Of a DNA stretch of 64,000 nucleotides, positions 12,440 through 35,593 are shown piece by piece (position 1 is the stretch's first letter; the number at the start of each line of letters is the position of its first letter). This DNA comes from a virus. Made by a program: the position numbers and the translations under genes. The notes under the pieces are model-generated. The model worked only from the letters and a program-made list of their open reading frames with translations, was not told where the DNA came from and made no database searches. The DNA lies in the IMG/VR virus record IMGVR_UViG_3300011116_001125, positions 11,637-75,636 of that record. One strand, 5' to 3'.

Positions 12440-12494
12440 CACTGCCCTTTCTTACGGCTGTGACTATATTACCACTGTTCAACCCCATGGACAA
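12440..12494 (-). promoter_or_regulatory. Promoter TTGTCC-N17-TAATAT plus AGAAAG-loop RBS hairpin for the SNF2 gene
   Basis: Minus strand reads CAC-A-GCC-GTAAGAAAG-GGC-A-GTG just before the ATG. Confidence 0.65.
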
Positions 12495-12661
12495 CTTTAC
12501 TATTAGGCGGGTTTTTCCAAGGCTATGCTACACAAACAACCTCGCACGCGTGCGCGGGGGGCGAAAAAGTGGTCAGATAGCGATATAGTCAGATATTGTA
12601 TAGTGGCGCAAAAATAAATTTGTTGTGTTCCATTTTAAAATTTGGACCTATTAAGCAAAGT
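12494..12661. other. Putative replication origin / primase site A
   Basis: 26-mer 12546-12571 matches the reverse complement of 34115-34140 at 25/26; bounded by inverted CCTAWT-like motifs; AGATA repeats. Confidence 0.45.
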
Positions 12662-12663
12662 GC

Positions 12664-12717
12664 TTGCTATCCTAGTTTCTATGGCCCATAGTAGTTGGGC
12701 ATGGGGAGAAAGCCGTG
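12664..12717 (+). promoter_or_regulatory. Promoter TTGCTA-N17-CATAGT plus AGAAAG-loop hairpin
   Basis: CATGG-GGAGAAAG-CCGTG (12700-12717), with the GTG start inside the stem. Confidence 0.65.
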
Positions 12718-13026
12718 ACCGTTTACATCACTCAAGAAGTTCGTGGGCGGGATCTTACCGATGCTTTGGGCTTTGGTGACCTAGACATACTTGTTCCTGC
12801 CAAGGAGCAAATTGCCTTATCATCAGGACCACTGGTTAAGCGTATGGAGCGAAAGTTATCCAAGTTCACAGATAATGATTTCCTTATGCTTGCAGGTGAC
12901 CCCGTTTGTATTGGGGTTGCGTGCGCACTTGCGGCAGTCAGTAACAATGGTCGTTTTAAGGTACTTAAATGGGACCGTTTGGAGCAAAGGTATTACCCGA
13001 TAAATGTCAACCTGTATCAAAAGTAG
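12715..13026 (+). CDS. Hypothetical protein
   Basis: 103 aa ORF with RBS, first gene of the replication operon. Confidence 0.7.
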   Translation: MTVYITQEVRGRDLTDALGFGDLDILVPAKEQIALSSGPLVKRMERKLSKFTDNDFLMLAGDPVCIGVACALAAVSNNGRFKVLKWDRLEQRYYPINVNLYQK

Positions 13027-13034
13027 GAGGCTGA

Positions 13035-13583
13035 ATGTTAGATTTTGAACAAACGGCTGACGAACTTAGCAAGCTAGGCGATGATGCTATAGGCCGCATT
13101 GCTAAACTGGTTAAGATGCAACTTGCCTTGGAAGCAAGGCTAGCTCAACTAGAAGAAGAGCAAAAAGATGTTGCACGTCAGTTACGTGAAATAGCTGAAG
13201 AAGAGCTGCCTTCCGCAATGGAAGAGCATGGCGTAAGCCAATTAAAAATGGGTGACGGTAGTGAAATCACTGTAAGCACGTTTTACAGTGCCTCAATACC
13301 AAAGGATGAAACTGAGCGTGCGTTCGATTGGTTGCGCGATAATAGGTTTGGTGACCTCATTAAAAATGTTGTTTCCACAACCTTTGGGCGCAACGACGAT
13401 GCTAAGGCTAAAGCACTTGTCAATACGCTGTCTGACAGTGGTTATAGCGTAAATCAGAAGCAGTGGGTTGAACCAATGACCCTCAAGGCTTTTGTTAAGG
13501 AACAAGTTGAAAAGGGGGCACCGCTTCCTATGGATTTGTTTGGTGTATATATTGGTAAAAAAGCCAAAGTAAGGAGAAAGTAA
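13035..13583 (+). CDS. Conserved phage replication-module protein
   Basis: 182 aa; coiled coil then AFDWLRDNRFGDLIK and VEPMTLKAFVKEQ, a type commonly found next to phage SSB/primase genes. Confidence 0.65.
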   Translation: MLDFEQTADELSKLGDDAIGRIAKLVKMQLALEARLAQLEEEQKDVARQLREIAEEELPSAMEEHGVSQLKMGDGSEITVSTFYSASIPKDETERAFDWLRDNRFGDLIKNVVSTTFGRNDDAKAKALVNTLSDSGYSVNQKQWVEPMTLKAFVKEQVEKGAPLPMDLFGVYIGKKAKVRRK

Positions 13584-14395
13584 TGGCTAAAACATCAGTT
13601 GCGGTTGCGGAAACCAAAAACACTGCACTTGCTACGGCAAGCGATCTATCAGGCTTTGAAGAGTTTGCAGGCTTGGGTATGCAAGAAGTTACTGCCGCAG
13701 ATATGGCAGTGCCGTTTTTGCGTATTCTGGCACAACTTAGCCCACAGGTGAATAAGCGTGATGGTGCTTATGTGCAGGGCGCAGAACCCGGAATGATCTA
13801 CAATACTGTGGCTAACGAAGTTTACAGTGGTGAAGAAGGTATTTTGGTAGTTCCTTGTTACACTAATACTCGTTTTGTTGAATGGAAGCCCCGTGAAAAG
13901 GGCGGCGGTTATGTGGCGAGCTATATGGGTACCGACCCTATTGTAAACACAACTCGCAAGGATGACCGTGGGCAGGATATCTTGCCTAATGGCAACTTGC
14001 TCAGCAAAACGGCGCAGTGGTTCGTATTGTTGTTGCACCCTGAAAACGGTGCGCAACGTTGCCTCATTACCATGAGCAGTACACAGCTTAAGAAAAGCCG
14101 TAGTTGGGTGACCACTACACGTAGCATCATGGGCAAAGGTGCAAACGGCCCGTTTGTAATGCCTATCATGTCACAGGTTTACCGCCTTAAAACTACTGAA
14201 GAGCGCAACGATAAAGGTAGTTGGTTTGGGTGGGATATCGCACGTGAACGCCAGTTGGTGTTGGAAAATCGTGACGATAGTGACCTCTACCGTATGGGTG
14301 TTGAGTTTAGCAAAAGCATTTCAGCGGGTGAAGTCAAGGTTAAAGATGAACACCCTGATATGTCCTCCGAAGATAATGGTTCTTCACCGTTTTAA
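13583..14395 (+). CDS. Putative single-stranded DNA-binding protein
   Basis: 270 aa; acidic C-terminus ending in PF; aromatic NDKGSWFGW segment; upstream of the primase. Confidence 0.55.
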   Translation: MAKTSVAVAETKNTALATASDLSGFEEFAGLGMQEVTAADMAVPFLRILAQLSPQVNKRDGAYVQGAEPGMIYNTVANEVYSGEEGILVVPCYTNTRFVEWKPREKGGGYVASYMGTDPIVNTTRKDDRGQDILPNGNLLSKTAQWFVLLLHPENGAQRCLITMSSTQLKKSRSWVTTTRSIMGKGANGPFVMPIMSQVYRLKTTEERNDKGSWFGWDIARERQLVLENRDDSDLYRMGVEFSKSISAGEVKVKDEHPDMSSEDNGSSPF

Positions 14396-14448
14396 TTTAG
14401 GTGATTGGGCGGGGGCATATAGCCTCCGCCAACCATACGGGGGTGGTA

Positions 14449-15972
14449 ATGCAAGAACATGCAAAGCAGTTTTTTGCTCTGTTCAAAGGTAATGACAGGG
14501 CACACGGAACATTTAGCGTTAACAAAAGTCGTGATGATGGCAAGAAAACGGGTATTGCTAAAATCCTACGGGAAGAAACTACGCTTGACCATTGGGTCAA
14601 TCACCTTGAGGGTGAGGTTGGCTTGGGCGTTATTCCTATTATGGACGACAACCATTGCCATTGGGGTGCTATTGATATTGATAGCTACGATTTAGATCAC
14701 AAGGCACTGTTAAAGAAACTTGGCTCACTGAACATTCCTGCGGTGGTGTGCCGTAGTAAGAGCGGCGGTGCCCATGTGTTTTTCTTCTTTGAAGAACCTA
14801 TCGATGCAGAAGATGTGCAGGGCAAGTTGAATGAAGTTGCCGCTATCACAGGATTTGCAGGTAGTGAAATTTTTCCTAAGCAAAGCAAGTTACTTGTTGA
14901 GCGTGGCGATACAGGCAACTTCCTTAACATGCCGTATTTCGGTGGGGATAACACCACCCGCTACGCTTTTGATGAAGGTGCCCAAAGCCTGAGTGTAGAA
15001 GCGTTCCTTACGCACGCCTTCACACGTAGGCTGAGCAAGGAAAAGTTTTTAGGGCTTAAGTTCAACAATAAGAAAACAGGCACCGAACTATTACCTAATG
15101 GTCCACCCTGTTTGCAACATCTATGCGCACAGGGCTTTGGTGAAGGTAGTAGGAACAATGCGCTATTTAATCTTGGTGTGTATGCCCGTATGTCAGATAG
15201 TGACCATTGGGAGCAGTTAGTTGCCAAATATAATCTAGATTACTTGAAACCACCGCTAGGCCATAATGAAGTAGGGGCCATTATCAAACAGTTGCAGAAA
15301 AAAGATTACTTCTACAAGTGCGAAGACCAACCTATATCCAGCTTCTGCAATAAAGCTGTGTGCATGACGCGCAAGTTTGGCGTTGGTCCTGGACAGTTGA
15401 ACAATGACCTTAGCAGTTTAACTAAAATAGACGGTGACCCACCTATATGGATATTGAATGTTGACGGTAGGCGCGTTGAGTTGAGTACTGAAAGTTTGGT
15501 AACGCAGAGTGCTTTCCAAAAAGAGTGCGTTGCACAAATCAATAAGTTCCCTATCACAGTTAATCAACGTGCATGGCAAACACGTATGCAATCTTTGTTA
15601 GACAACTTAACGGTTGTAGAAGTGCCGCCAGATGCTACCATTAAAGGTGAGTTTGAGGATTTGCTTGCGAGCTTTTGTTGCGACCGTGCGCGGGGTGATA
15701 CACGTGATGAGATACTACAAGGCATTGCTGTATGGGTTGATGAGCGTGTGTATTTCCAAATCAAAGACGTACGGAAACATCTGCAAGTAAACAACTTCAC
15801 GCATTACACTAGCAACAAGATAACGCTACGCTTGACTGATCTAAAAGCGGAAAAGATGTTTTGGCGTGTGAAGGGTAAGGGTATTCACGTGTGGAGTTTG
15901 CCACAAACATTCTTTGCCACGCAGATGGAAACATTGGATTTGCCACCGCTTGTGCCTAAAGATGTAATCTAA
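14449..15972 (+). CDS. Archaeo-eukaryotic-type primase with PriCT domain (likely ATG 14449)
   Basis: WGAIDID, RSKSGGAHVF, FLNMPY, GPPCL...GEGSRNNALF. Confidence 0.8.
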   Translation: MQEHAKQFFALFKGNDRAHGTFSVNKSRDDGKKTGIAKILREETTLDHWVNHLEGEVGLGVIPIMDDNHCHWGAIDIDSYDLDHKALLKKLGSLNIPAVVCRSKSGGAHVFFFFEEPIDAEDVQGKLNEVAAITGFAGSEIFPKQSKLLVERGDTGNFLNMPYFGGDNTTRYAFDEGAQSLSVEAFLTHAFTRRLSKEKFLGLKFNNKKTGTELLPNGPPCLQHLCAQGFGEGSRNNALFNLGVYARMSDSDHWEQLVAKYNLDYLKPPLGHNEVGAIIKQLQKKDYFYKCEDQPISSFCNKAVCMTRKFGVGPGQLNNDLSSLTKIDGDPPIWILNVDGRRVELSTESLVTQSAFQKECVAQINKFPITVNQRAWQTRMQSLLDNLTVVEVPPDATIKGEFEDLLASFCCDRARGDTRDEILQGIAVWVDERVYFQIKDVRKHLQVNNFTHYTSNKITLRLTDLKAEKMFWRVKGKGIHVWSLPQTFFATQMETLDLPPLVPKDVI

Positions 15973-17489
15973 TGAACATCATACTTGGTCCTCCAGGAAC
16001 TGGCAAAACAACGCGGTTACTGTCGTTGGTCGAGTATCACATTGAACAAGGCGTAGCACCAGAACGTATTGGATATTTTGCTTTTACGAAAGTTGCCGCA
16101 CGCGAAGCAATGTTGCGTGCGATGGGGCGCTTTAGGCTGAGCGAAAAGCAGTTACCGTTTTTCCAAACGCTACATAGCCTTGCGTATCATCAAATGGGTA
16201 TTACCCAAAACCAAATGATGACCAAAGATGGTTATGCCGAAGCCGCTGAGTGGTTAAAGGTCGGTGGTTTTGTGTTGAACAGTGAAAGTACCGATGGCCC
16301 ACATTTAGATTTTGGTTACGGCGATAAGTTTTTAGAAATAATAAATATCGCACGTATTCTGCGTAAGCCGCTCAAGGGTATCTACAACGCTAGCACCGTT
16401 CCGCTAAAAACTGATTGGCAACGTGTTGATTATGTGGATAGAGGGTTGCGCCACTTTAAAGAAACAATGCAGTTGTTTGATTTTACCGACCTGCTTGAGC
16501 AGTTTGTACTGCGGAAGCTAAGCCCACGGTTAGAAGTGGTATTGATAGATGAAGCCCAAGACCTCAGCCCGCTACAGTGGGAGATGGTGCGTCAGCTTAC
16601 GGTAAATGTTCCGCATGTATACATCGCAGGCGATGATGACCAAGCTATCTACCGTTGGGCAGGGGCCGATGTACAACAGTTCATTGCGTTAGAAGGCAAC
16701 GTAGAAGTGTTGGGCCAAAGTTACAGAATACCTTTGCGCCACCATGAGGTCAGCCAACGTGTTGTCAGCCGCATACCATTGCGCCGTGATAAACCGTTTG
16801 CTCCACGTGCAGAAGAAGGCACTGTGCAGTGGCACCGCCACAGCGAAGAAGTAAACTTGGACCAAGGCCAATGGCTCTTGCTTAGCCGCACGCGCAAGGG
16901 TGCAATAAGATTAGAACAAGAAGTACGTCAGCGCGGTCACCTTTATACATTTAATGCTAGCCGTAGCGTGGATCCTGAGATGTTGCAGGCTATTCGTGTG
17001 TGGGAGGCATTGCGTAGTGGGGAGCGTATGCAAGCTAAAGATGTTAGGACAGCATTTAAGTTTATGACGATGAATACGCAGGTAGCGTATGGAAATAAGA
17101 CGTTGCCTAATGTTAAGGATGATGTGTTCTTGACCATTGGTGATTTGTTAAGCAATCATGGGTTGTTGCATACGCTCCCGTGGGAAGAAGGCTTAGGTCG
17201 TATCAGTGAAGAAAATAGGCGTTACATCAAGGCTTGCTTCAAGAAAGGTGAATCGCTTGATAGCAAACCACGGATAACAATTAGCACTATTCATGCCAGT
17301 AAAGGTGCCGAGGCTGAAAATGTACTGTTGACCACTGATAGTGGTGGCAAGTTTCAAAGTATGTGGCGCAAATCAGAGTTTGATGCTGAAGATGAAACAC
17401 GGGTGTTCTATGTGGGGCTTACTCGTGCTAAGAAGGGCCTGCATCTAATCCACCCGATGTACACGTCTGGTTACCCCATACCGCATTAG
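15972..17489 (+). CDS. UvrD/Rep-family (SF1) helicase
   Basis: GPPGTGKTT, IDEAQDL, GDDDQAIYRWAGA, STIHASKGAE, FYVGLTRAK. Confidence 0.92.
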   Translation: MNIILGPPGTGKTTRLLSLVEYHIEQGVAPERIGYFAFTKVAAREAMLRAMGRFRLSEKQLPFFQTLHSLAYHQMGITQNQMMTKDGYAEAAEWLKVGGFVLNSESTDGPHLDFGYGDKFLEIINIARILRKPLKGIYNASTVPLKTDWQRVDYVDRGLRHFKETMQLFDFTDLLEQFVLRKLSPRLEVVLIDEAQDLSPLQWEMVRQLTVNVPHVYIAGDDDQAIYRWAGADVQQFIALEGNVEVLGQSYRIPLRHHEVSQRVVSRIPLRRDKPFAPRAEEGTVQWHRHSEEVNLDQGQWLLLSRTRKGAIRLEQEVRQRGHLYTFNASRSVDPEMLQAIRVWEALRSGERMQAKDVRTAFKFMTMNTQVAYGNKTLPNVKDDVFLTIGDLLSNHGLLHTLPWEEGLGRISEENRRYIKACFKKGESLDSKPRITISTIHASKGAEAENVLLTTDSGGKFQSMWRKSEFDAEDETRVFYVGLTRAKKGLHLIHPMYTSGYPIPH

Positions 17490-17543
17490 TTGTCATTTAA
17501 AACATCGCGTGGCACATTATGGTTACTGCAACGGGAGTACTAC

Positions 17544-17819: not shown

Positions 17820-17832
17820 CCAACTAGCCAAC

Positions 17833-17850
17833 TGATAGGAGAAAGTATCA
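17833..17850 (+). promoter_or_regulatory. AGAAAG-loop RBS hairpin
   Basis: Perfect TGATA-GGAGAAAG-TATCA ending on the A of the ATG. Confidence 0.7.
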
Positions 17851-18881
17851 TGGCGCACCTTATTGAAACTATGGCTTATGCAGGCGAAGTTCCTTGGCAT
17901 GGGCTTGGCACTCAGGTTGATAGCAACATGTCACCTGAACAAATGCTTGTAGCCGCAGGCTTGGATTGGACGGTTAGCAAACGTCCTGCCTATTTTGCCG
18001 CTGAAAAGTTTGTACCTAATTTGTACGCACCCGAGCTTAACAGCAACATGATGCTTGTTGAGGATAACTTCTTTGTAGTGCGCGATACCGATAACAAGGT
18101 ACTCAGCCATGCAGGTACAGGGTACAACCCTTTCCAAAACCGCGATGTAATGTCGTTCTTTAAAAAGTTCACCGAAGCAGGTGATATGTTTATGGAAACG
18201 GCAGGTAGCCTAAAGGAAGGCCAAGAAATTTGGGGCCTTGCCAAGTTAAAAGACGGCTTCCAGCTTGCGGGTGGTGATGAGGTAAAAGGTTACCTTTTGC
18301 TCAACAATAGCCACAAGGTCGGCAAAGCTATGACTGTTATGTTCACGCCTATTCGTGTGGTATGTAACAATACGCTCACCTTGGCCCTTAACGATGCGGG
18401 GGCTAACAAGTTCCGCATTTTGCACCTGCAAATGTTTGATCAAGAAATTATGCAGGCCGCAGAGGAGGCCCTTGGCCTGAGTAGCACCCGCATGGCGCAG
18501 TTCAAAGAGCAGTCTGAGTTCCTTGCTTCCAAACGTGCCAAAACACTGGATGTTGATAACTTCATAGCCGAAATGTTCCAAAAGGATACGTTATTGGAAC
18601 GTGGCAAAGCCGCCAACCAGAACGAGTTGCCACCGTTACGCGACGAGTTCAAACGTACCGCATTGGCAGTAGCCGAGGCTTACGAAGTAAGTCCAGGAAG
18701 CACCCTTGCTTCTGCCAAGGGCACATGGTGGGGCGCACTCAATGCCGTCACCTACGTGGTTGACCACCCGCGCCGCGCAAGCAGTGAAGGCGGTAGCCTC
18801 TACAGCGCATGGTTCGGCAACGGTGCCAACGTCAAGCGCCGCGCTATGGAAAAGGCTTTGGAGTACGCGCAAGCCGCGTAA
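17850..18881 (+). CDS. DUF932-family (TIGR03299-like) phage/plasmid protein
   Basis: MAYAGEVPWHGLG, AAGLDWTV, TPIRVVCNNTL, GTWWGALNAVT. Confidence 0.85.
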   Translation: MAHLIETMAYAGEVPWHGLGTQVDSNMSPEQMLVAAGLDWTVSKRPAYFAAEKFVPNLYAPELNSNMMLVEDNFFVVRDTDNKVLSHAGTGYNPFQNRDVMSFFKKFTEAGDMFMETAGSLKEGQEIWGLAKLKDGFQLAGGDEVKGYLLLNNSHKVGKAMTVMFTPIRVVCNNTLTLALNDAGANKFRILHLQMFDQEIMQAAEEALGLSSTRMAQFKEQSEFLASKRAKTLDVDNFIAEMFQKDTLLERGKAANQNELPPLRDEFKRTALAVAEAYEVSPGSTLASAKGTWWGALNAVTYVVDHPRRASSEGGSLYSAWFGNGANVKRRAMEKALEYAQAA

Positions 18882-18889: not shown

Positions 18890-18953
18890 TTGCAATGGTG
18901 GAGTCAGTGGTTAAACTGGCTCCACTACCCACCTTGCCATAGAAAGGCGCAAG
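18890..18953 (+). promoter_or_regulatory. Promoter TTGCAA-N16-TAAACT plus AGAAAG-loop hairpin
   Basis: CTTGCC-ATAGAAAG-G(C)GCAAG at 18933-18953, upstream of ATG 18956; probably drives the modification operon. Confidence 0.6.
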
Positions 18954-18955
18954 AT

Positions 18956-19528
18956 ATGTATTACGTGATTGCTGAAGGCCCCCCTGCTTCACAGGGCAAG
19001 CCTTATCACATTTTAAAGTTCAAAACGCTACGTGACATGAAAGAGTGCCCTTTGATCGACAAAGGCACCATTGTGTATAGCGAAGTTACCCAATTAGACG
19101 AGTTTTGTACAAAGGCCGAGTTGGAAGCCATTTGGCACACTCTTAACCTGAGTTCAAAGGCACCGCAGAACAAGCGCATTACCGCAGGGCTTCTGCATGA
19201 GTATGTTGTGGAAAACGCAACGGTTTGGAAACAAGGAGACACCAAAATGACTGAAGTTAAAGTTTCGGCACCTGCCGCTAAAACTGCTCCGAAAGAGAAA
19301 AAGGAAAGTGCCCGCACACGTATCCCCAAGGAAGCAAAAATCGTAGTGCTTAAGCAGTTTGAAGGTCGCGCCGGAACCACGCGTGCCGAAGCCTTAAAAA
19401 TTGCTCTTGCCGCACCAACGGTTGAAAAGGCCCTTGCCGATATGCGTGCCGCAGGATTTACAGCGGCAGTTGCCTCATCGACCATTAAGTTCGCCATTGC
19501 CGAAAAACTTATAACGGTAAAGATCTAA
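18956..19528 (+). CDS. Hypothetical protein with a basic Ala/Lys-rich C-terminal domain (likely ATG 18956)
   Basis: RBS before 18956; second in-frame RBS and ATG at 19247. Confidence 0.65.
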   Translation: MYYVIAEGPPASQGKPYHILKFKTLRDMKECPLIDKGTIVYSEVTQLDEFCTKAELEAIWHTLNLSSKAPQNKRITAGLLHEYVVENATVWKQGDTKMTEVKVSAPAAKTAPKEKKESARTRIPKEAKIVVLKQFEGRAGTTRAEALKIALAAPTVEKALADMRAAGFTAAVASSTIKFAIAEKLITVKI

Positions 19529-19529
19529 C

Positions 19530-20384
19530 ATGAACGGCGAAGGGCAGTTCTTTTATTGGATAAATGAGCGCCATTCTATCTATTTGTCTAAGGCGGCGGG
19601 TAATCCAAAACCTTGGACAAGTGATAGTATTTTCCAACAGTACAAGTTTACGAACCCTTTTAGGGAGCTAGACAAAACAACTGTATGGATGCGCGAACAT
19701 TTGACCAATCCCAACAAAAATGCCCCCATAGCCGAAACCCTGTTCAACTGTTGCGTGTTCCGCATGTTTGGCACGATGGAAATGGGCGAGGCTTTGGGTT
19801 GGATAAAGCAGTGGGATCCTGAATATGTGAAAAGTCTTGCCCGTGGTCGGTTGAGCATGGGGCTTAAAGTATTCACAGGGGCATACATTATCACTAACCA
19901 AGGGTTGAAAAACCCAAAGGAAGAGGTAGTATGCGATATGTTTCTGACCCCCGTATGGAAAGCCCGTGATCAGTTAGCCGAGTGCATTGAGCAAACAAAT
20001 AGTTTGGAAGCACTGCACAAGGAACTTGGCAAGTTTGCAGGATGGGGCGGCGGGGGCTTTATGGCCTACGAAGTAGTAACCGATCTTAACCATACTAGCG
20101 CCATGCCAGAGCCAGTTGATAGGTTTACGTGGGCCAATGCAGGTCCAGGAGCAAAGCGGGGTCTTAACCGTTTGCATGGTCGCCCCTTGGATAAAGCCAA
20201 TGGCGTAGACTGGAATAGCGAAATGCAACAGCTATTGGAGCTCGCCCCAAAATACTGTGACCCCGAAGTATTAGCTCAAGTTGTAGATATGCGCACGATA
20301 GAGCATAGCCTGTGCGAATGGGATAAGTACCAACGGGTACTACTCGGCCAAGGTAAACCACGAAGCCTGTACAAAGGAATTTAG
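19530..20384 (+). CDS. 5-hmdU DNA kinase helical domain / aGPT-pyrophosphorylase clade 1 protein
   Basis: FFYWINERHSIY...PWTSDSIFQQYKFTNPFRELD, FTGAYII, FMAYEVVTDL, AGPGAKRGL, IEHSLCEWDKY. Confidence 0.85.
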   Translation: MNGEGQFFYWINERHSIYLSKAAGNPKPWTSDSIFQQYKFTNPFRELDKTTVWMREHLTNPNKNAPIAETLFNCCVFRMFGTMEMGEALGWIKQWDPEYVKSLARGRLSMGLKVFTGAYIITNQGLKNPKEEVVCDMFLTPVWKARDQLAECIEQTNSLEALHKELGKFAGWGGGGFMAYEVVTDLNHTSAMPEPVDRFTWANAGPGAKRGLNRLHGRPLDKANGVDWNSEMQQLLELAPKYCDPEVLAQVVDMRTIEHSLCEWDKYQRVLLGQGKPRSLYKGI

Positions 20385-20385
20385 T

Positions 20386-21384
20386 ATGTCATACGTACAA
20401 GACCCACCCTACTGCATCCAAGTAGAATTAACTGAAGGATGCAACTTGGGTTGTAGCTTCTGCGGGTTGCAACACATTCGTGATAACGGTGCCAATGGCC
20501 CCGAAGATAAACACGGTAAAGCCTCCTTTATGAAGTTTTTAACCGTGGAAAATGCGGAGGTTATTGCAAGCCGTATAGCCGAAGCTAAATGGACCCCCCG
20601 TATTGAGTTTGCCATGCACGGCGAGCCAACCATGAACCCTAATTACATTGAAATTGTAGGGGTGTTCCGTAAGAATTTACCGAAAGCCAGTTTGCAGTTG
20701 ACCAGTAATGGCGGCGGGCTACTCAAAGGCCAAGGGTTCAGTAGCAATATCAACGCGCTTATGGAAGCGGGCCTGAACATACTTAGTTTAGATAACTACG
20801 ATGGCATACGTATCGTTGATAAAATTTTGCAAGGATACAATGGGCCACATCGCGTATGGAAATACCCGCAAGAAATTATGGGCAACCCTCATCGCCGCCG
20901 CAAGCCGCATGAACACGATATTGTAGTTATTCAAGATATTGAAGCCGCTACCAAAGGCAATCACAGTATACTCAGCAACCACACAGGCGGGAGCTTTCCG
21001 CTTAATGATAAAATGGCAGGGAAGCGTTGTGCAAAGCCCTTCCGTGAACTTAGCGTGCGTTGGGATGGCAACGTAGCGATGTGCTGTAACGACTGGCCCG
21101 GACGCTACAAAATCGGCAACTTGTTAGAAACAGCAATAAGTGAGCTTTGGCTAGGTGAAGCCTTCCAAGCCGCTAGACAAGCCTTGTATCATGGACAACG
21201 GACATTCACACCTTGTAAAGGTTGTGACCATGTAAGTTACCGTCCAGGATTGTTGCCTGATGCCAAGGGTAAAGAAACATTACCAAAGCCTGATGCGCAA
21301 ACGTGGGCAGTAATAGAAAAATACACAAGTGGTGAGCCTTACACTCCAAAAGTAAAAAGGCCGTGGGATGGAGTAATTAAGTGA
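20386..21384 (+). CDS. Radical SAM enzyme with SPASM/twitch domain
   Basis: CNLGCSFC motif; HGEPT; CAKPF...DGNVAMCCND...CKGC. Confidence 0.9.
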   Translation: MSYVQDPPYCIQVELTEGCNLGCSFCGLQHIRDNGANGPEDKHGKASFMKFLTVENAEVIASRIAEAKWTPRIEFAMHGEPTMNPNYIEIVGVFRKNLPKASLQLTSNGGGLLKGQGFSSNINALMEAGLNILSLDNYDGIRIVDKILQGYNGPHRVWKYPQEIMGNPHRRRKPHEHDIVVIQDIEAATKGNHSILSNHTGGSFPLNDKMAGKRCAKPFRELSVRWDGNVAMCCNDWPGRYKIGNLLETAISELWLGEAFQAARQALYHGQRTFTPCKGCDHVSYRPGLLPDAKGKETLPKPDAQTWAVIEKYTSGEPYTPKVKRPWDGVIK

Positions 21385-22343: not shown

Positions 22344-22360
22344 TAATAGTAGGGCATACC

Positions 22361-26216: not shown

Positions 26217-26220
26217 ACAC

Positions 26221-26682
26221 GTGAACATATTCGCCTTACACACTGATCCTGTAATTGCGGCGCAATGGCATTGCGATAAGCACGTTGTCAAAATGCCGTT
26301 AGAAACTGCTCAGATGCTTTGCACGGTGCATCACCATTACGGCTTTGATGCGCCCTATAAGCCTGCTCATGCTAACCATCCTTGTACTGTGTGGGCGGGC
26401 CAAACGATTGAAAATTACAAGTGGCTCTGGCGCTTAGGCATTGCCCTATGCGAGGAGTATACCCACCGATACAACAAAACTCATGCCTGCGAGCAAGTGT
26501 TAGCGATAGTGCGTTGCGCTCCACCTACACTCACGGCACGGGGTTACACAAAATTCGCGCAGGCCATGCCTGACGAATACAAGCACCACGATACACAAAT
26601 AGCTTATCAACAATATTATCGCGGTGCAAAATACCAGTTGGCTGTGTACACGAAACGTGAACCACCGCCGTTCATGCAATAG
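26221..26682 (+). CDS. Pyrimidine-dimer DNA glycosylase (DenV)-like protein
   Basis: MNIF.L...A..HCDKHVVKM.LE.AQML, HHPCTVW-type motif, FAQAMPD. Confidence 0.75.
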   Translation: MNIFALHTDPVIAAQWHCDKHVVKMPLETAQMLCTVHHHYGFDAPYKPAHANHPCTVWAGQTIENYKWLWRLGIALCEEYTHRYNKTHACEQVLAIVRCAPPTLTARGYTKFAQAMPDEYKHHDTQIAYQQYYRGAKYQLAVYTKREPPPFMQ

Positions 26683-26693
26683 AAAGGCATACC

Positions 26694-27191
26694 ATGCGAA
26701 AACATAAAATACCCTTTGACCGTAAACCAATGTTCCTATTGGTTGATGCTTACCGCAAAGCGGGAGGTGTTACGGAGTTAGCTGAACATCTTGAAATGAG
26801 CGATAGCGCCATATATAATTGGTTTGACGGCATTCATGCTCCTAGCTATGAAAGTATTGAGGCGTTGCGCTATTATCTGTACGGTGAGGAAGAGGCACGG
26901 CCCGCACCGAAACCTGTTAAAAAGCAAGAGTTATATGCCAAGCCTTTTGATAAACCGAACACGGTTAAAAAGGTTGTGCGTGTGGATAGGATTTTTCTTG
27001 GTGGTTCGGGCAATTTTGTTGGCTTCGGCACCGTGGAAAACTGTTCAGTGTTCATTACACCTTTATGTGTAAAGAAAATTACTGAGCACATGGGTAGTAT
27101 CTACGAAGGCGATGAGTACGAATTTGAACTCATGGTTGATATTACCAAACGCAGTGACTATATCACCCATCGTTACGTAAAACCAGTATAG
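26694..27191 (+). CDS. HTH (Cro/XRE-like) DNA-binding protein
   Basis: GGVTELAEHLEMSDSAIYNWFDG..P; RBS in ATGC-AATAGAAAG-GCAT hairpin (26674-26690). Confidence 0.65.
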   Translation: MRKHKIPFDRKPMFLLVDAYRKAGGVTELAEHLEMSDSAIYNWFDGIHAPSYESIEALRYYLYGEEEARPAPKPVKKQELYAKPFDKPNTVKKVVRVDRIFLGGSGNFVGFGTVENCSVFITPLCVKKITEHMGSIYEGDEYEFELMVDITKRSDYITHRYVKPV

Positions 27192-27205
27192 TAGGAGGAA
27201 GGACT

Positions 27206-27577
27206 ATGAACACTCGTGAAAACTTACTCAAACAAGCTAATACCGCTATCACCAACGTTGACCGTGCAGGTGGCACAGAATTATTTGTGAAAACTGCCGT
27301 TATTGCATCCGCAATGTGCGACGAAACCATTACACCCTATACGGTTTCAATTGTGCTGAGCAGTATGCAAATGGCGCTGATTTCGTGCAAACAGTTCGGG
27401 CAAGCAACTGAAGCTGATTGGGCCAATTTGGTCAAGGACATTAGCTATGCGGCTTCGTTTGCAACTAATGCACCACAAAACGTTCGTGTTTCCACCGCAG
27501 GAATGCCAAAGGTAGACTTTAACTTGGAAGACGTTGCCGTTAAAATGGCAGACCAACTTGGAGTGAATAAGGCATGA
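27206..27577 (+). CDS. Hypothetical protein (possibly degenerate DUF6378-like)
   Basis: RBS hairpin ATAGT-AGGAGGAAGG-ACTAT; weak pattern similarity only. Confidence 0.55.
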   Translation: MNTRENLLKQANTAITNVDRAGGTELFVKTAVIASAMCDETITPYTVSIVLSSMQMALISCKQFGQATEADWANLVKDISYAASFATNAPQNVRVSTAGMPKVDFNLEDVAVKMADQLGVNKA

Positions 27578-27765: not shown

Positions 27766-27834
27766 CACCTTTAGAGGCATATGCCGCGTTAGCAGTTGTC
27801 ATGGCACTATTGGCGACTATGTTTGTTCTAATGT

Positions 27835-28240: not shown

Positions 28241-28295
28241 TTGTCTAGGGTGTATCGTGCCCTAAACTATAATTGTAACGCTCAAAGAAAGGGGC
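28241..28295 (+). promoter_or_regulatory. Promoter TTGTCT-N16-TAAACT plus AGAAAG-loop hairpin
   Basis: GCTC-AAAGAAAG-GGGC at 28280-28295. Confidence 0.65.
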
Positions 28296-28485: not shown

Positions 28486-28559
28486 TGTTGTTTGCAGTCG
28501 CGGTATTTATCGTTTTAGTTTACTTCCTTAGTGACTAACCAAAGGCAGGAGAAAGTGCC

Positions 28560-29110: not shown

Positions 29111-29437
29111 TAGGAAGGGGAGGACCACTCATGTAGGACGTAATATGTCAACCCCTTGAGCTTAACACTTTTGAGTAAGAAGGCAACATGAAAAAGAAAC
29201 GCGACCTAACCGACCGTGAGCTAAAAACTAAAGAAGAAAAAGCGCGTGAAATTGCACGTCAGCATCGCATAAGTAGTGACATGATGGTCACCAAGGGGCA
29301 ACGGCCCAAGGTCAGTTTACCAAGGTTCAGCTGGGACAAGGAGAAAGAGTGATGACTGAACTCGTTGCGTTTTTGGAAAACCATTACATCAGCCTATGGA
29401 TCTTGGCGTTTCTTTGCTCGATACACGTTGGAGTAAA

Positions 29438-29650
29438 ATGATGACTGATATCGTTGATTGGTTACGATATGTTGCTAGCGAACATAATATGTATCGTTGT
29501 GATGAAGCCGCCGACGAGATTGAGCGGCTGCGAAATGTTGTGGCATTACTGATTGAGTATGAAGAGCACGATAAAAACATCCTCAAAGGCGCGGTAATGT
29601 GGGAGGCGCTTATTGAGGCAGCACATCGCGCTTTAATGGAGAAAGAGTGA
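29438..29650 (+). CDS. Small phage protein, DIV.RLR / EAADEIERLR family
   Basis: MTDIVDWLR...CDEAADEIERLR; paralog at 29787. Confidence 0.65.
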   Translation: MMTDIVDWLRYVASEHNMYRCDEAADEIERLRNVVALLIEYEEHDKNILKGAVMWEALIEAAHRALMEKE

Positions 29651-29786
29651 TGAGTTTTCCACAATTCAATTACACGCTTGGGGAGCCAATGCCGCGACCG
29701 CCATCGATGAACAACTCGACAAAAAATAAACCGCAACGCAAAACGCAGTCAGGTGTTCCAGCGATACCGCTAAAGGAGAAAGAGTG

Positions 29787-30035
29787 ATGGACATAGTTGA
29801 GCGGTTGCGCCTTGATCGTCCGTGTATATCGGATGTTGATTGTTGCGGAGATATTTGCATCGAAGCCGCCGACGAGATTGAACGGTTGCGGGAGGCGATG
29901 GTTGAAATCGTTTATCTTATTGGTGACCGTGACCGCCGTCAAGAAGTTATGGATATTGCCAAGCCCTACGCGATTCAACAACTCGCATTAAAAGGCAATA
30001 AACCCCACGTTTATCTTTTAGATGAAGAAGCCTGA
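29787..30035 (+). CDS. Small phage protein, DIV.RLR / EAADEIERLR family
   Basis: MDIVERLR...CIEAADEIERLR. Confidence 0.65.
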   Translation: MDIVERLRLDRPCISDVDCCGDICIEAADEIERLREAMVEIVYLIGDRDRRQEVMDIAKPYAIQQLALKGNKPHVYLLDEEA

Positions 30036-30045
30036 CAAAGGCCAG

Positions 30046-30110
30046 TTGTCAATAACCTATCTGGCATTACTGTATGTGTATGGCAACTTGTAGAAAGGAG
30101 TTACGCCATG
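30046..30110 (+). promoter_or_regulatory. Promoter TTGTCA-N16-TACTGT plus AGAAAG-loop hairpin
   Basis: ATGGC-AACTT-GTAGAAAG-GAGTT-(AC)-GCCAT includes the start codon. Confidence 0.7.
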
Positions 30111-31119: not shown

Positions 31120-31413
31120 ATGGGAGCGCAGGAGTTTGTAGTATCGCGTAAAAAAGCAGGTCAAACCGCCAGTGAGGCGTTTAGTGACGCCCGTGCCGGA
31201 GCTTTGTACGATTACGGGCACCGAGGCTATACAGGCACGATAGCTGAAAAAGCAGCTTTTAAGATGTTACCAGTGGTAGAAGGCAAAACCGCTGAAGAGA
31301 GTGCTTGGCACTACTTGGATGAGGACCACCCCGCCATACGCGATAAATGGGGTCCGGCGGGATGTATTGAGGCCGAGGATAAGTACGTGTTCTTTGGGTG
31401 GGCCTCGGCGTAG
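31120..31413 (+). CDS. Hypothetical phage protein
   Basis: AAGGAGG RBS; YGHRGYTGTIAEK...DKWGPAGC...FFGWAS. Confidence 0.65.
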   Translation: MGAQEFVVSRKKAGQTASEAFSDARAGALYDYGHRGYTGTIAEKAAFKMLPVVEGKTAEESAWHYLDEDHPAIRDKWGPAGCIEAEDKYVFFGWASA

Positions 31414-31477
31414 TTGTCTTAACCTGCTCATGTTTTACTGTTAAACTATGGCTACTAGCAGAAAGGAGTGCGCCATA
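31414..31477 (+). promoter_or_regulatory. Promoter TTGTCT-N16-TACTGT plus AGAAAG-loop hairpin
   Basis: TATGGC-TACTA-GCAGAAAG-GAGTG-C-GCCATA. Confidence 0.7.
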
Positions 31478-31932
31478 TGACTATTTATCCACAGACCCAA
31501 CAAGAAGTCTTTGATACTGTTGCTACCCATCTTTTCAAGCAGGGGATGCAAAGCCGTGGTAACGATGGTTGTGCGTATCGCGCCATTGCAAACATCAACA
31601 ACCAAGAAGTTGTGCTCAAATGCGCGGTCGGTGCGCTTATACCCGACCATCTGTATACCGAAAGCATGGAAGGTGAGAGCGTCCATGGCTTGCTCAGTAG
31701 TTTTGATAAAAGCACAGATGTGCCTACCGAGGCTGAGCAAGAGCTCTACGAGTTTCTAGCCGACCATGAAGATCTGCTTACTGCTTTGCAAGAAGCTCAC
31801 GACCACAAAATGGAGCATAGTTTAGGCGTCAATGACCATAGTTTCCTTGCAACCATGTTAGCCATCGCGCACCGCTTCGGCCTTAATGAAATCGCCTTAC
31901 GTGCGGCGCATCAGGCTTATATCAAAGGGTAG
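31477..31932 (+). CDS. Hypothetical protein, paralog A (C.YR...KCAVG..IPD family)
   Basis: ATG 31477; paralogous to 31995-32432. Confidence 0.7.
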   Translation: MTIYPQTQQEVFDTVATHLFKQGMQSRGNDGCAYRAIANINNQEVVLKCAVGALIPDHLYTESMEGESVHGLLSSFDKSTDVPTEAEQELYEFLADHEDLLTALQEAHDHKMEHSLGVNDHSFLATMLAIAHRFGLNEIALRAAHQAYIKG

Positions 31933-31934
31933 GG

Positions 31935-31997
31935 TTGTCACTATTAAGTCCTACCTTACACTGTAGTTATGGCACTTGTAGAAAGGAGTTAGCCATG
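31935..31997 (+). promoter_or_regulatory. Promoter TTGTCA-N16-TACACT plus AGAAAG-loop hairpin
   Basis: ATGGC-ACTT-GTAGAAAG-GAGT-TA-GCCAT. Confidence 0.7.
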
Positions 31998-32432
31998 AAC
32001 ACACAGCAAGTATTCAACCGAGTTGTCACACATCTTTATACGCAAAAGCGTCGTAGCTATGGCGATCTGCCTGAAAGCGAAAATGTTGGTTATAACGGGT
32101 GTCTGTACCGTGGGCCAGATAACACGAAATGTGCTGTCGGCATTTTTATTCCTGACCAAAACTACACTACCGAAATGGAGGGTAAGGGTGCCACCGAGCT
32201 CTTTGAAACGTTTGGCGATAGATTGCCCAAGTACCTCGCTAACAGTGTTCCTTTGTTAGAAAGTTTGCAACAAGTTCATGACAACATGGCCGACCTTGAA
32301 GATGCGTATCACGGAACTGTGAATTATGGTGCGCGTAACCAACTTATGAGTAGTCTTTTGCATGTATGCAGAATGTACGATCTTGACGATGAAGTTGTAT
32401 GGAAACACCATCACCAAAAACAGGAGGCATGA
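31995..32432 (+). CDS. Hypothetical protein, paralog B
   Basis: ATG 31995; TQQVF..V.THL..Q, GCLYRG, KCAVG.FIPD..Y..EMEG, LQQVHD. Confidence 0.7.
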   Translation: MNTQQVFNRVVTHLYTQKRRSYGDLPESENVGYNGCLYRGPDNTKCAVGIFIPDQNYTTEMEGKGATELFETFGDRLPKYLANSVPLLESLQQVHDNMADLEDAYHGTVNYGARNQLMSSLLHVCRMYDLDDEVVWKHHHQKQEA

Positions 32433-33549: not shown

Positions 33550-33553
33550 GGGG

Positions 33554-33618
33554 TTGTCCATTAACCATCTGGCAATACAGTGTGTGTATTGGCAAGCCAC
33601 AGAAAGGGCAGAGCAATG
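33554..33618 (+). promoter_or_regulatory. Promoter TTGTCC-N16-TACAGT plus AGAAAG-loop hairpin
   Basis: Near-copy of the 30046 promoter; GCC-ACAGAAAG-GGC at 33596-33609. Confidence 0.7.
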
Positions 33619-33900
33619 GACTTACTAGCTGACATTTGGGTTATCTACATCACGTATGCGCCATGGGTATTCATCATCGGGGCCGCCATGCTGATTACTT
33701 GGGTAACGGAGTGGTGAAATGGTTACCTATCATCGCGAAGCCGACGGTGTGTATACGGTCACCAAACACGGGGCCGTCTACGCTTGGGTGAACTACAGCC
33801 GACCACGGAAGCAATGGCGGCTTGTGACGGTTAAGGGGCGGCTGACCTTTTACCTTTCGCTAACAGGGGCAATTCAGGCCGTTGAAAGGGCCGATGTATA

Positions 33901-34197
33901 GTTTTCCTTATAGGGTCTTAATGATATTAGAGTAAGTTATTGAAAAACAATAAGATAAAATTATAGGGATGGCAAAGGACGTTTTTTGGTTTGTGTTTTA
34001 TCGTCCATTTTCCAGTATCTGAGTATCTTTGTTTAGTTTCAATGGGTTAGTCCAGTATCTATATCATATCTCATTTATCAGGTTTCATTGTCTGTTATTT
34101 AGTCAGTTTTAGTTCACTTTTTCGCCCCCCGCGCGCGCGTACCCCTCTTCTTCAAAATTTTTTTCATAACCCCTACCCCCCCCCTATTAAGAAAAGT
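33901..34197. other. Putative replication origin / primase site B
   Basis: AT-rich non-coding region; CCAGTATCT repeats; inverted copy of the 12546-12571 26-mer; CCTATTAAGAAAAGT matches 12647-12661 at 14/15. Confidence 0.45.
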
Positions 34198-34262
34198 CCG
34201 AAGCAGGGTTGTCTTTGGTCGGCGGGAGCGCCATTGTAGGCGCACATCGTCGGAGAAAGCGG

Positions 34263-34898
34263 ATGCCAAAAGGCCAATACGATCGTAAATTAGCGAAGGC
34301 TCGTCACGGTAAACCTCTTGCGGCTATGCCCTACGACCACATCGATGTTCAACGGATTAAGCCCGTAGTTAACCCTCTACATGAAAAGGGCTTGACACAA
34401 AGGCAGGAAAAGTTCTGCAAGCTCTACGCTACCGAAAACTACACGGTGAGCGAATGCGTGGTGATGGCAGGGTATAGCACCGACCAGAACGCCGTATGGT
34501 CTATGGGAAGCAAACTGCTCAACGGGCGGGACTACCCGAATGTGGTGGCCCGTATCCGTGAGCTCAAGCAGGAGATGGCGGGTAAGTACGAGGTAAACTT
34601 TGATAACCACGTAAGGAGGCTAGCGGAGATCCGAGACGCCGCTGTGGCTACGGGCAACTATGCCGCCGCTGTAACTGCTGAAAAGGCTCGAGGACAAGCT
34701 GCGGGGCTCTACGTAACGAGGCAGGAAATTCTCGTTGGCAAAATAGATCAGATGTCCAAGGAAGAGCTTATTGAAGAGATAGCCAAGCTGAACAAAGAAT
34801 ATCCCGCATTGATAGAGCTCAGCGCTAACCCCGTATTGGAACTCACTGCAAATGACGCCAGAAGCAAGGTTGTGGAACCTAGTAAAAGAAAAGACTGA
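34263..34898 (+). CDS. Terminase small subunit (likely ATG 34263)
   Basis: LTQRQEKFC..Y...AGYS HTH; NYAAAVTAEKARGQAAGLY; upstream TTGTCT-N17-CATTGT and GGAGAAAG RBS. Confidence 0.8.
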   Translation: MPKGQYDRKLAKARHGKPLAAMPYDHIDVQRIKPVVNPLHEKGLTQRQEKFCKLYATENYTVSECVVMAGYSTDQNAVWSMGSKLLNGRDYPNVVARIRELKQEMAGKYEVNFDNHVRRLAEIRDAAVATGNYAAAVTAEKARGQAAGLYVTRQEILVGKIDQMSKEELIEEIAKLNKEYPALIELSANPVLELTANDARSKVVEPSKRKD

Positions 34899-35268
34899 AC
34901 GGCTTGTTGAATGGACAAGGATTGAGGCGCGTGTTGGGGCAGGAATACCCGACTTAAACGGGGTTCTTTGCATAGATGCAAGCAAAGAGGTCTGGTTGGA
35001 GCTTAAGGTTTGCAAGACAAAACGCTTCTCAGTTAAAAACCTCTGGCGTCCTGCCCAAATTGCTTGGCAGACAAAGCGTAGCCGCAGACTAAGTAATGTT
35101 TTCAACTTGGTCAGCCATCCGTCCGGAGGGGTTTTTTATATTTATTCAGCCGCCAAACTGCAGAAATTAGTGGAGGAAGGTCCGTTGTCCGTGGTCCCAG
35201 ACCTGACGATGCACGGTAAAATTGACGTGGCGATGATGCTTGATTATATACAATCCGTGGCCGATTGA
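34852..35268 (+). CDS. PD-(D/E)XK nuclease / Holliday-junction resolvase
   Basis: TRIE...GIPDLNG...WLELK...RPAQIAW. Confidence 0.75.
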   Translation: MTPEARLWNLVKEKTERLVEWTRIEARVGAGIPDLNGVLCIDASKEVWLELKVCKTKRFSVKNLWRPAQIAWQTKRSRRLSNVFNLVSHPSGGVFYIYSAAKLQKLVEEGPLSVVPDLTMHGKIDVAMMLDYIQSVAD

Positions 35269-35273
35269 CCAAG

Positions 35274-35338
35274 AACATTCGAATAATCCGCTATCGCCTG
35301 ATGAGAAACATTCGAAAAAACCGCTATCCACTGATGAG
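35274..35338 (+). repeat. Two-copy tandem repeat, 33-bp period
   Basis: AACATTCGAATAATCCGCTATCGCCTGATGAG / AACATTCGAAAAAACCGCTATCCACTGATGAG. Confidence 0.85.
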
Positions 35339-35515
35339 TGGCTCTTCGCGCACGGTCATCGTCGCATCTTCCTCTGCTCATGTATCATGGTCCTCGTCTG
35401 ATCGGATCGTCGTCTCGTCTTACTTTTCGTCAGGTGATCTTACTCATCGGCAGGTCGTCTGACCAGGTCTCTTGAGCTATGCACCAGACGCAGGTCAGCT
35501 ATGCGTTTTTGTGGA

Positions 35516-35593
35516 TGGTCTTTTGGCTGTCTGGTCCTAGAATGGTTTCCATGGTTGAGCAATGGTGCTTCGCCATAGACCACAGAAAGGGTC
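35516..35593 (+). promoter_or_regulatory. Promoter TGGTCT-N16-TAGAAT plus AGAAAG-loop hairpin
   Basis: GACC-ACAGAAAG-GGTC at 35578-35593. Confidence 0.65.

Follow-up and report, generated by a model that had tools for sequence, protein, structure and literature searches.

A covarying start-associated RNA hairpin on early and middle genes of uncultured aquatic phages related to HTVC023P

One hairpin at many start codons

Why should a phage carry the same small RNA hairpin at the ribosome-binding sites of gene after gene in its early and middle region? The question is raised by a window of 64,000 nucleotides (nt), bases 11637-75636 of the 75.6-kb IMG/VR virus record IMGVR_UViG_3300011116_001125. 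Between positions 12,440 and 35,593 of this window an initial annotation, made from the sequence alone, had picked out short stems closing a loop, usually of 8 nt, that ends in AGAAAG, and had proposed that they act together as a translational operator. Here we report that these elements belong to a family of start-associated RNA hairpins that is real and, as far as our searches reach, undescribed. The explanation of its function that we favour, with about even confidence, is a self-contained one: promoter-proximal early and middle genes would have the hairpin as a structured 5' leader acting in cis, which carries an extended Shine-Dalgarno (SD) sequence and docks the ribosome via its loop.

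The string AGAAAG occurs 46 times in the window, as against 30.7 +/- 6.1 times in shuffled sequences, and about 19 of the copies stand 1-11 nt ahead of real start codons, all within 12.4-35.6 kb; no late-gene ribosome site of the window has one. On the plus strand, a stem of at least 4 base pairs (bp) exactly closes an 8-nt loop ending in AGAAAG at 8 of the 18 AGAAAG ribosome sites (12700-12717, 17833-17850, 26199-26216, 28280-28295, 28544-28559, 30085-30102, 31974-31989 and 35578-35593). When the arms were swapped among sites in 20,000 permutations, such exact-register stems numbered 1.1 on average and 6 at most (P<5e-5), and arms drawn at random from the genome gave 0.39. At five variant sites the loop has 9 or 10 nt, the stem is bulged, or only 3 bp are formed above a lower stem (26674, 31453, 18933, 33596 and, on the minus strand, 12444), and four AGAAAG ribosome sites have no hairpin (13575, 29342, 29640 and 29777). 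Every site that had been listed initially is present; among the three put forward as weaker variants, those at 23312 and 27188 are weak or off-register, and that at 34245 does not fold as claimed.

Taken singly, the hairpins of the window are weak (-2 to -10.5 kcal/mol), with z-scores from +0.4 to -3.2 that are mostly not significant. Moreover, a loose search for stems of at least 4 bp with loops of 6-12 nt near a start returned 22 of 42 early and 17 of 42 late ribosome sites. The specific part of the signal is only the exact register together with the loop: the expected difference between early and late genes holds for exact-register AGAAAG hairpins, which are early and middle only, and fails for loosely defined ones, which are about as frequent at late sites.

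Conservation and covariation among relatives

Relatives were gathered via a polymerase alignment (A1) as 80 IMG/VR loci with a DNA polymerase at least 67% identical and a G+C content of 36-55%. Nearly every locus has 3-9 hairpins on the gene strand, the opposite strand being almost free of them. The exact 8-nt register with a stem of at least 4 bp is found at 357 of their 1300 plus-strand AGAAAG sites, other registers giving 19-90, and the loop remains constant as RYAGAAAG while the stems vary from site to site. In a census of all octaloop hairpins with at least 5 bp, loops of this kind are at or tied for the top (GTAGAAAG 26, ATAGAAAG 19, GCAGAAAG 12, ACAGAAAG 7 and GGAGAAAG 5). The 150 unique hairpins have very diverse stems of 4-9 bp, mostly closed by C-G or U-G, and their first two loop bases are a purine and then a pyrimidine, giving the consensus C-R-Y-AGAAAG-GAG. 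These two bases are mixed inside single genomes, so there is no lineage-specific loop code.

Covariation was measured over a six-pair helix in 148 distinct AGAAAG sites associated with ribosome-binding sites and sampled regardless of their stems (A2). Of the cells in this helix 60.9% are paired, compared with 44.1 +/- 1.4% in shuffles (reached in 0 of 500) and at most 47% in controls with a slid helix; the covariation score is 0.46, compared with 0.21 in shuffles and at most 0.245 in slid controls. G-U pairs make up about 17% of the paired cells, and orthologous leaders keep the hairpin with different stems. Thus, pairing and covariation both exceed the controls, which bears out the proposal that ribosome-binding sites are associated with a motif in RNA whose stems covary.

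A covariance model (R1; A3) built from the relatives only recovers the window sites at 30083-30104 (24.8 bits), 26197-26218 (23.7 bits) and 17831-17852 (18.7 bits) and, more weakly, those at 31974, 35575 and 28277. In five relatives that are 94-100% complete it gives 8-10 matches per genome, all on the gene strand of a segment of about 20 kb with early and middle genes around the polymerase, and zero matches in the remaining 35-40 kb. Together with the lack of AGAAAG at the late ribosome sites of the window, this agrees with the initial view that the motif is confined to early and middle genes.

The hairpin marks out one clade. We did not find it in the Pelagibacter phages HTVC023P and HTVC027P, in 023Pt_psg01 or in the freshwater phage DSL-LC04, to which the window polymerase is 50-56% identical, and it is near-absent in contigs whose polymerase is at most 65% identical. 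The exact 14-mer CTCGTAGAAAGGAG is present in more than 118 IMG/VR contigs, a count of about the order that a rough estimate gives for chance matches; hence only contigs with multiple hits are informative, and among the loci with at least three hairpins 21 of 24 come from the same clade. A single hairpin 17 nt from a start codon in locus L088, a different type of phage with a primase-polymerase, was judged a chance match. Against GenBank phages, megablast returned zero matches for 26-36 kb of the window. Rfam gave no match at E<=1 for 12000-37000, a search in which very short hairpins are hard to detect, the papers on HTVC023P-type phages mention neither promoters nor hairpins, and no description of the motif was found in the literature searched, in keeping with the initial impression that it is not a described one.

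The genomes with hairpins also keep a set of thymidine-hypermodification genes (see below) that is absent from the hairpin-less relatives examined. Matches in single-cell genomes of SAR11 belong to hairpin-less relatives. A host assignment through genome bins was rejected, for the taxa contradict each other, as is typical of mis-binned phage contigs. Phages of the HTVC023P type have been reported to outnumber every other pelagiphage group (PMC12753301). In a large clade of their uncultured aquatic relatives there seems to be an uncatalogued but well-supported RNA motif, of which each genome has 8-10 copies and which comprises about 150 distinct hairpins.

The loop as a probable part of an extended Shine-Dalgarno sequence

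What does the constant loop spell? AGAAAG ends 8-10 nt ahead of the start codon in 100 of the 150 unique hairpins, which implies a GGAG at 5-7 nt, the canonical aligned spacing. Two classes can be told apart. In the common class B, the order is stem, RY, AGAAAG and GAG, so that the 3' arm contains the GGAG or GGA core; class A, which is rarer (12700, 17833 and 28544 in the window), has GGAG in the loop, 6-8 nt before the start, and the start codon in or beside the 3' arm. The resulting string (U)AGAAAGGAG would pair without mismatch with a 3' tail of 16S rRNA of the CCUCCUUUCU(A) type, the tail type being assumed. The pairing of AGAAAGG with a 16S end of the CCUUUCU type, suggested initially, would then involve an exact complement at the right spacing, given a presumed host tail of this type. 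For the Bacillus-type tail GAUCACCUCCUUUCU(A), motifs of the UAGAAAGGAGG type are documented, and UAGAAAGGAG and AGAAAGG have been listed among the SD motifs specific to it (PMC5427494). The computed duplex energies with the tail are -4.1 kcal/mol for AGAAAG, -7.2 for AGAAAGG and -11.9 for AGAAAGGAG, the hairpins themselves lying mostly between -4 and -10 kcal/mol.

AGAAAG is a general feature of the ribosome sites of these phages, with or without a stem. Across the clade a hairpin accompanies 49% of the 369 unique AGAAAGG ribosome sites and only 17% of the 54 GGAGAAAG ribosome sites, 83% being without, and the preference for U before AGAAAG holds also where there is no hairpin. DSL-LC04 has AGAAAGGAGAAAG-like purine-rich ribosome sites and no hairpins. 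The loop is thus accounted for, in large part, by the outer portion of an extended SD sequence. The initial claim that it is conserved beyond SD needs survives in one respect, an enrichment of AAAG in class A loops (see below).

Predicted promoters and two-tier leaders

Which genes receive a hairpin? Of 235 hairpins 214 are intergenic, and -10-like (TATAAT-like) hexamers are enriched 5-16 nt upstream of them (155, versus 39 at control positions). Hairpins accompany 17% of tight gene junctions and 44-63% of gaps of at least 40 nt, and those orthologues of the gene at 26221 that lie inside operons have neither hairpin nor AGAAAG. The hairpin therefore tracks promoter-proximal context and not gene identity. 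The early region is made up of short units in succession, headed by promoters and in some cases cassettes that vary between strains, whereas the late genes are tightly packed without leaders, and this accounts for the contrast in hairpins between early and late genes.

In the window, the promoter-like pattern GTTGTC-N16-17-TAnnnT occurs 6 times (1.5 expected), and five copies directly precede hairpin leaders. Four of these leaders, with AGAAAG at 30092, 31460, 31980 and 33601, share a further property: the predicted +1 is the A of an AUGGC or AUUGG whose partner at the start codon would be GCCAU or CAAU. In these four the whole 5' untranslated region (UTR) of about 30 nt appears, from the modelled folds, to be one two-tier hairpin with the octaloop as its sole open part. 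The first is predicted to run from a promoter at 30045-30073 (GTTGTCA-N16-TACTGT; predicted +1 at 30080) into a hairpin at 30080-30109, in which the 5' end and the start codon at 30108 are joined by the lower stem ATGGC/GCCAT and the upper stem AACTT/GAGTT closes GTAGAAAG (30085-30102); it has a computed energy of -10.2 kcal/mol and an R1 score of 24.8 bits (E 4e-5). The second has a predicted promoter at 31413-31441 (GTTGTCT-N16-TACTGT; predicted +1 at 31448) and a hairpin at 31448-31476, ATGGC-TACT-AGCAGAAAGG-AGTG-C-GCCAT (-9.1 kcal/mol; R1 9.8 bits), before an ATG at 31477 or a GTG at 31468, its inner hairpin being 31453-31470 with a 10-nt loop. The third, from a predicted promoter at 31934-31962 ((G)TTGTCA-16-TACACT; predicted +1 at 31969), is ATGGC-ACTT-GTAGAAAG-GAGT-TA-GCCAT at 31969-31996, with the ATG at 31995 partly paired (-10.4 kcal/mol, z -3.2; R1 15.4 bits). 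The fourth combines a predicted promoter at 33553-33581 (GTTGTCC-N16-TACAGT; predicted +1 at 33588) with a hairpin at 33588-33617, where ATTG...CAAT surrounds GCC-ACAGAAAG-GGC (33596-33609) and reaches the ATG at 33616 (-9.3 kcal/mol).

The remaining one of the five copies lies on the minus strand before the helicase gene (10996-12435, start codon 12435), where GTTGTCC-N17-TAATAT at 12466-12495, a pattern match with a putative promoter role, stands directly upstream of a hairpin at 12440-12462 that has GCC/GGC closing the 9-nt loop GTAAGAAAG (12444-12458) and a lower stem CAC/GUG. The strand of the motif thus follows that of the gene. A sixth promoter-like copy (27795-27823, GTTGTC-N16-18-TAnnnT) precedes the small gene at 27868, which has neither AGAAAG nor hairpin. 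Promoter prediction puts the +1 at the base of the hairpin in 4-7 leaders of the window, and among 206 extended hairpins of the clade 64 reach into the start codon. A switch of the T4 lysozyme or soc type, with a promoter inside the hairpin, was rejected for the window since there the whole hairpin comes after the predicted promoter. No RNA dataset is listed among the holders of this DNA; four runs with an RNA-Seq label are probably DNA, exist as contigs and yielded no molecule starts.

A proposed ribosome-docking leader and its rivals

We propose the following course of events. A sigma-70-like promoter would start each short transcription unit, and the RNA, at its very start or a few bases past it, would fold into a stem of 4-6 bp closing the 8-nt loop RYAGAAAG. 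The loop would present (U)AGAAAG, complementary to the last 6-7 bases of the CCUCCUUUCU(A)-type 16S rRNA; the SD core (GGAG or GGA) would form the 3' arm in class B, whereas class A would have GGAG in the loop and the 3' arm occupied by the start codon. Several leaders would have a second, lower stem, in which the first bases of the mRNA pair with the start codon. We infer that the 30S subunit docks on the loop, the only open part, and that the pairing then spreads through the stem, which at -4 to -6 kcal/mol is weak compared with the full 9-bp duplex with the rRNA (about -12 kcal/mol), and so opens the start codon. Until docking, the folded leader probably shields the short 5' UTR from 5'-end-dependent decay and sets the rate of initiation. 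A dedicated trans-acting factor would not be needed.

Several observations weigh against this proposal. AAAG follows GGAG in 8 of the 21 GGAGNNNN loops, compared with 4.8% of all GGAG sites, an enrichment that comes down to about 5-6 independent cases; in class A this AAAG cannot pair with the tail simultaneously with GGAG. The purine at the first loop position (99% in hairpins) is not accounted for by pairing with the rRNA, and a loop size constant at 8 in both classes looks like a recognised unit. The folding of the SD sequence in just one subclade is not explained either. The distance from the -10 element to the stem is broad in the clade (4-17 nt), so many hairpins are not strictly 5'-terminal, which weakens the stabilising part of the proposal. 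Finally, the CCUCCUUUCU-type tail is that of a presumed host.

The enrichment of AAAG, the purine and the constant loop size fit the operator proposed initially, in which an as yet unrecognised phage or host RNA-binding protein, nuclease or small RNA would read the RYAGAAAG octaloop and its stem on 8-10 leaders per genome, and shut down or activate early and middle translation together, much as RegA, RegB and gp43 of T4 or the MS2 coat protein act on theirs. The near-invariance of the loop in both registers relative to the start codon would suit such a factor, orthologous genes swap between class A and class B and yet keep a hairpin with an AGAAAG loop, and the motif is confined to one subclade with its own conserved early genes. 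Analogous start-associated sequences have likewise been proposed as possible factor sites (PMC3203893). Nothing in the genome, however, points to a binder. Profiles for RegA (PF01818) and RegB (PF10715) matched nothing in the 75.6-kb record, a search that gave no match in control genomes either; no RNA-binding domain was seen among the early proteins, the conserved genes specific to the clade being DNA-modification enzymes; and look-ups in a protein atlas and in PHROG gave no RNA-binding lead for the clade-specific small proteins at 17544 and 23328. As for a small RNA, the genome has no convincing RNA hairpin with a CUUUCU loop: an anti-SD RNA of this kind was rejected because the only two plus-strand candidates, at 12138 and 22026, both lie inside coding sequence. 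These two hairpins, strong ones of -18 and -15 kcal/mol, have loops containing CUUUCU, complementary to the loop of the motif, and one is antisense to the helicase gene. Furthermore, the stem is missing at half of the AGAAAG ribosome sites, the loop can mostly be explained as SD sequence, DSL-LC04 does without hairpins, and the presence of the motif tracks promoter context instead of the gene. We therefore regard an operator as unlikely, and the regulon as unproven and, on balance, a less probable explanation than a leader that docks the ribosome by itself. If the operator were true, it would be a structured-operator regulon without known counterpart in a globally abundant uncultured aquatic clade and a possible key to the 15-year-old puzzle of the start-associated sequences.

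Less probable again is that the hairpin serves chiefly to stabilise the mRNA, with a 5'-proximal stem-loop and a very strong SD sequence blocking 5'-end-dependent RNases, much as in the leaders of ompA, aprE and cryIIIA (STAB-SD), and with the loop mattering only as SD sequence. The placement of hairpins directly after promoter-like sequences and the closure of the two-tier leaders from the predicted +1 are what one would expect of such an element, and GAAAGGAG is a string that we take to resemble STAB-SD. Many hairpins of the clade, however, stand 3-9 nt from the predicted start, beyond the tolerance of classic 5' stabilisers, the stems are weak, and neither the fixed 8-nt loop nor the splitting of the SD sequence between loop and stem is explained.

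A leader that senses conditions, whose weak stems mask the SD core or AUG and melt with temperature (an RNA thermometer) or another physical cue to tune early translation in cold aquatic hosts, seems to us improbable to a much greater degree. Marginal stem energies at 37 C (-4 to -6 kcal/mol), an SD core or start codon inside the stem and the labels of the metagenomes that hold this DNA (aquatic, freshwater, estuary or sediment) would suit it; but a loop toehold would admit ribosomes at any temperature, and the idea is pure inference. Least credible of all is an element acting in transcription or on DNA, i.e., an antitermination hairpin of the nut/boxB kind, a palindromic protein site or part of a promoter: although short stems with purine-rich loops at the heads of early transcripts recall boxB and the hairpins adjoin promoters, they keep a fixed distance of 8-10 nt to start codons in 8-10 copies per genome, their freely varying stems offer no common DNA-binding site, their G-U pairs would be mismatches on the other strand, their matches are confined to the gene strand, and their loop is of 8 nt and not a GNRA-like pentaloop.

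The ribosome-docking leader amounts to a specific design, in which a promoter is followed by a hairpin that would split an extended SD sequence between loop and stem, and then by the AUG. In four leaders the loop is predicted to be the only open part, which makes it possible to test directly whether the 3' end of the 16S rRNA docks there first. The motif also marks early and middle transcription units and true start codons in unannotated genomes, and predicts hosts with a CCUCCUUUCU-type 16S tail.

Genome layout and individual sites

The early and middle region of the window (12.7-36.3 kb, plus strand) encodes a primase, a helicase, a thymidine-hypermodification cluster, a family A DNA polymerase and many small proteins; packaging and virion genes occupy 36.4-64 kb and 1-11 kb. 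The hypermodification cluster (18956-26682) includes a 5-hmdU DNA kinase helical domain (PF18723), a radical SAM/SPASM protein, a thymidylate-synthase-like enzyme, an HD 5'-deoxynucleotidase, two Pyr_excise-like proteins and a DUF1599-like protein. The record, rated 100% complete by CheckV, contains the block of structural genes twice (1-16052 and 57992-75634 of the record, 78-91% identity; 1-4416 and 59588-63998 in window coordinates). This layout suggests a genome of about 58 kb to which part of a second strain, a copy of the structural end, has been joined by chimeric assembly or as a concatemer.

The first rightward early gene, Pam3_gp32-like, is headed by the class A hairpin CATGG-GGAGAAAG-CCGTG (12700-12717), which has the GTG start at 12715 inside its 3' arm; the orthologue in L203 has the stem ACGG/CCGT. 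Next comes a GGAGAAAG ribosome site without a hairpin (13573-13585, start 13583). At 17833-17850 the class A hairpin TGATA-GGAGAAAG-TATCA (R1 E 0.006) overlaps the ATG at 17850, and orthologues of this gene have class B hairpins with the stems ACTC/GAGT, TTTT/GAAA and ATCTT/GAGAT in place of TGATA/TATCA. The hairpin at 18933-18953 (CTTGC-C...G-C-GCAAG, loop ATAGAAAG, start 18956) consists of 5 bp, a bulge and 1 bp, and orthologues have TTTCC/GGAGA. At 23312-23327 a weak 3-bp stem, CGC/GCG, encloses the 10-nt loop AGGAGAAAGA before the start at 23328; relative L004 has CGT/ACG here, a compensatory change from C-G to U-A.

The class B hairpin TGTTC-ATAGAAAG-GAACA (26199-26216; R1 E 1e-4) serves the GTG start at 26221 and has, 5 nt ahead of it, a predicted sigma-70-type promoter (26165-26193, TAGTCA-17-TATAAT with TG, 10/12 matches); its stem is degraded in L004. 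ATGC-AATAGAAAG-GCAT (26674-26690, start 26694) has a 9-nt loop, and the minimum-energy fold favours an alternative. At 27187-27208, TATAGT-AGGAGGAAGG-ACTATG, of 5-6 bp with a 10-nt loop, covers the ATG at 27206, and only in L003 and L004 does its loop read as the AGGAGAAAGA/GGAGAAAG type. Class B GCTC-AAAGAAAG-GGGC (28280-28295, start 28300; R1 12.6 bits) lies 6 nt downstream of a TATAAT (28268-28273) and shows a change from G-U to A-U among close relatives, and class A GGCA-GGAGAAAG-TGCC (28544-28559) abuts the ATG at 28560.

The ribosome-site string GGAGAAAGAGTGATG occurs three times without a hairpin (29338-29354, 29638-29652 and 29775-29789). In four metagenome runs contig ends and loose ends pile up at about 29354 and at 29790-29793, at a depth 5-15 times that nearby, which fits these repeats marking junctions of swapped small-gene cassettes. 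The adjacent paralogues at 31477-31932 and 31995-32432 (both phrog_17693) each have their own promoter-hairpin leader, and the cassette 31924-32419 is missing exactly in other strains, with 8 other bases in its place. Further downstream, the small terminase subunit has a GGAGAAAG ribosome site (34250-34265, start 34263) with no convincing octaloop hairpin. The last hairpin, class B GACC-ACAGAAAG-GGTC (35578-35593, start 35600; R1 14.8 bits), keeps its stem in relatives in which the first two loop bases are AC, GC or GT. The early genes of DSL-LC04 (L005) have a repeated leader of another kind, without a hairpin: they share ACATACAGGAGAAAG or TAATA(C/T)AGGAGAAAG directly before the start codon (e.g., 23100-23118, 26850-26867 and 31280-31296).

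Comparison with known systems

Small structures at or near ribosome sites are known from several systems. The operator of T4 gene 43 has a 5-bp stem and an 8-nt loop beside the SD sequence and is bound by the DNA polymerase. It is alike in size, in its 8-nt loop and in its place at the ribosome site of a gene of the replication period; however, it is a single autoregulatory site with another loop sequence, whereas the aquatic motif has many copies per genome, and the leader of the window polymerase gene (23741) has no AGAAAG hairpin. In T4, RegA and RegB act on many early messages, which have a common signal at the ribosome site (for RegB, GGAG) and are silenced together, but unlike the aquatic motif their targets need no conserved hairpin. 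The lambda nut/boxB hairpin has a 5-bp stem and a GNRA-like pentaloop and is not tied to start codons, whereas the aquatic loop has 8 nt, or 7-10 in variants, and keeps its distance to the start constant; the window motif does not have the nut/boxB features, boxA not having been searched for.

The 5' hairpins of ompA and aprE and the STAB-SD of cryIIIA are 5'-terminal stabilisers. Like them, the aquatic leaders are predicted to have a stem-loop at or near the 5' end of the mRNA and a strong SD sequence (GAAAGGAGG) close to that end; yet STAB-SD does not serve initiation, whereas the aquatic SD sequence starts its gene and the register of its loop is conserved. The PeSL cassettes of T4-type phages are modules of promoter and hairpin in which the stem-loop is a terminator upstream of the promoter; here, too, repeated promoter-hairpin modules head small swappable early genes, the aquatic hairpin being instead part of the ribosome site. 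With the extended Bacillus-type SD sequence (UAGAAAGGAGG family; PMC5427494) the motif has in common that loop and 3' arm spell (U)AGAAAGGAG at the right spacing, but an ordinary SD sequence has no conserved hairpin register.

By analogy, the closest described counterpart is the start-associated sequence (SAS) of Cluster K mycobacteriophages, a 13-mer, GGGATAGGAGCCC, that occurs 11-19 times per genome and is restricted to the non-structural half (PMC3203893, Pope et al. 2011). It lies 3-7 bp before start codons, contains the SD core and is conserved ahead of unrelated genes (PMC3203893); its function was still untested in 2025 (PMC12699233). Its symmetric outer bases (GGG...CCC) could close a loop around the SD core. 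The 13-mer itself, with up to 2 mismatches before start codons, has 0 matches in the window, and the phage lineage and hosts of the SAS differ from the aquatic clade. The aquatic motif thus has the defining features of none of the SAS, the T4 gene 43 operator, the 5' stabilisers with STAB-SD and the PeSL cassettes. Whereas the SAS is a fixed 13-mer, the aquatic motif joins a fixed loop to covarying stems. This argues directly for pairing in RNA, and for a start-associated motif of the mycobacteriophage kind it is the first clear evidence at the RNA level.

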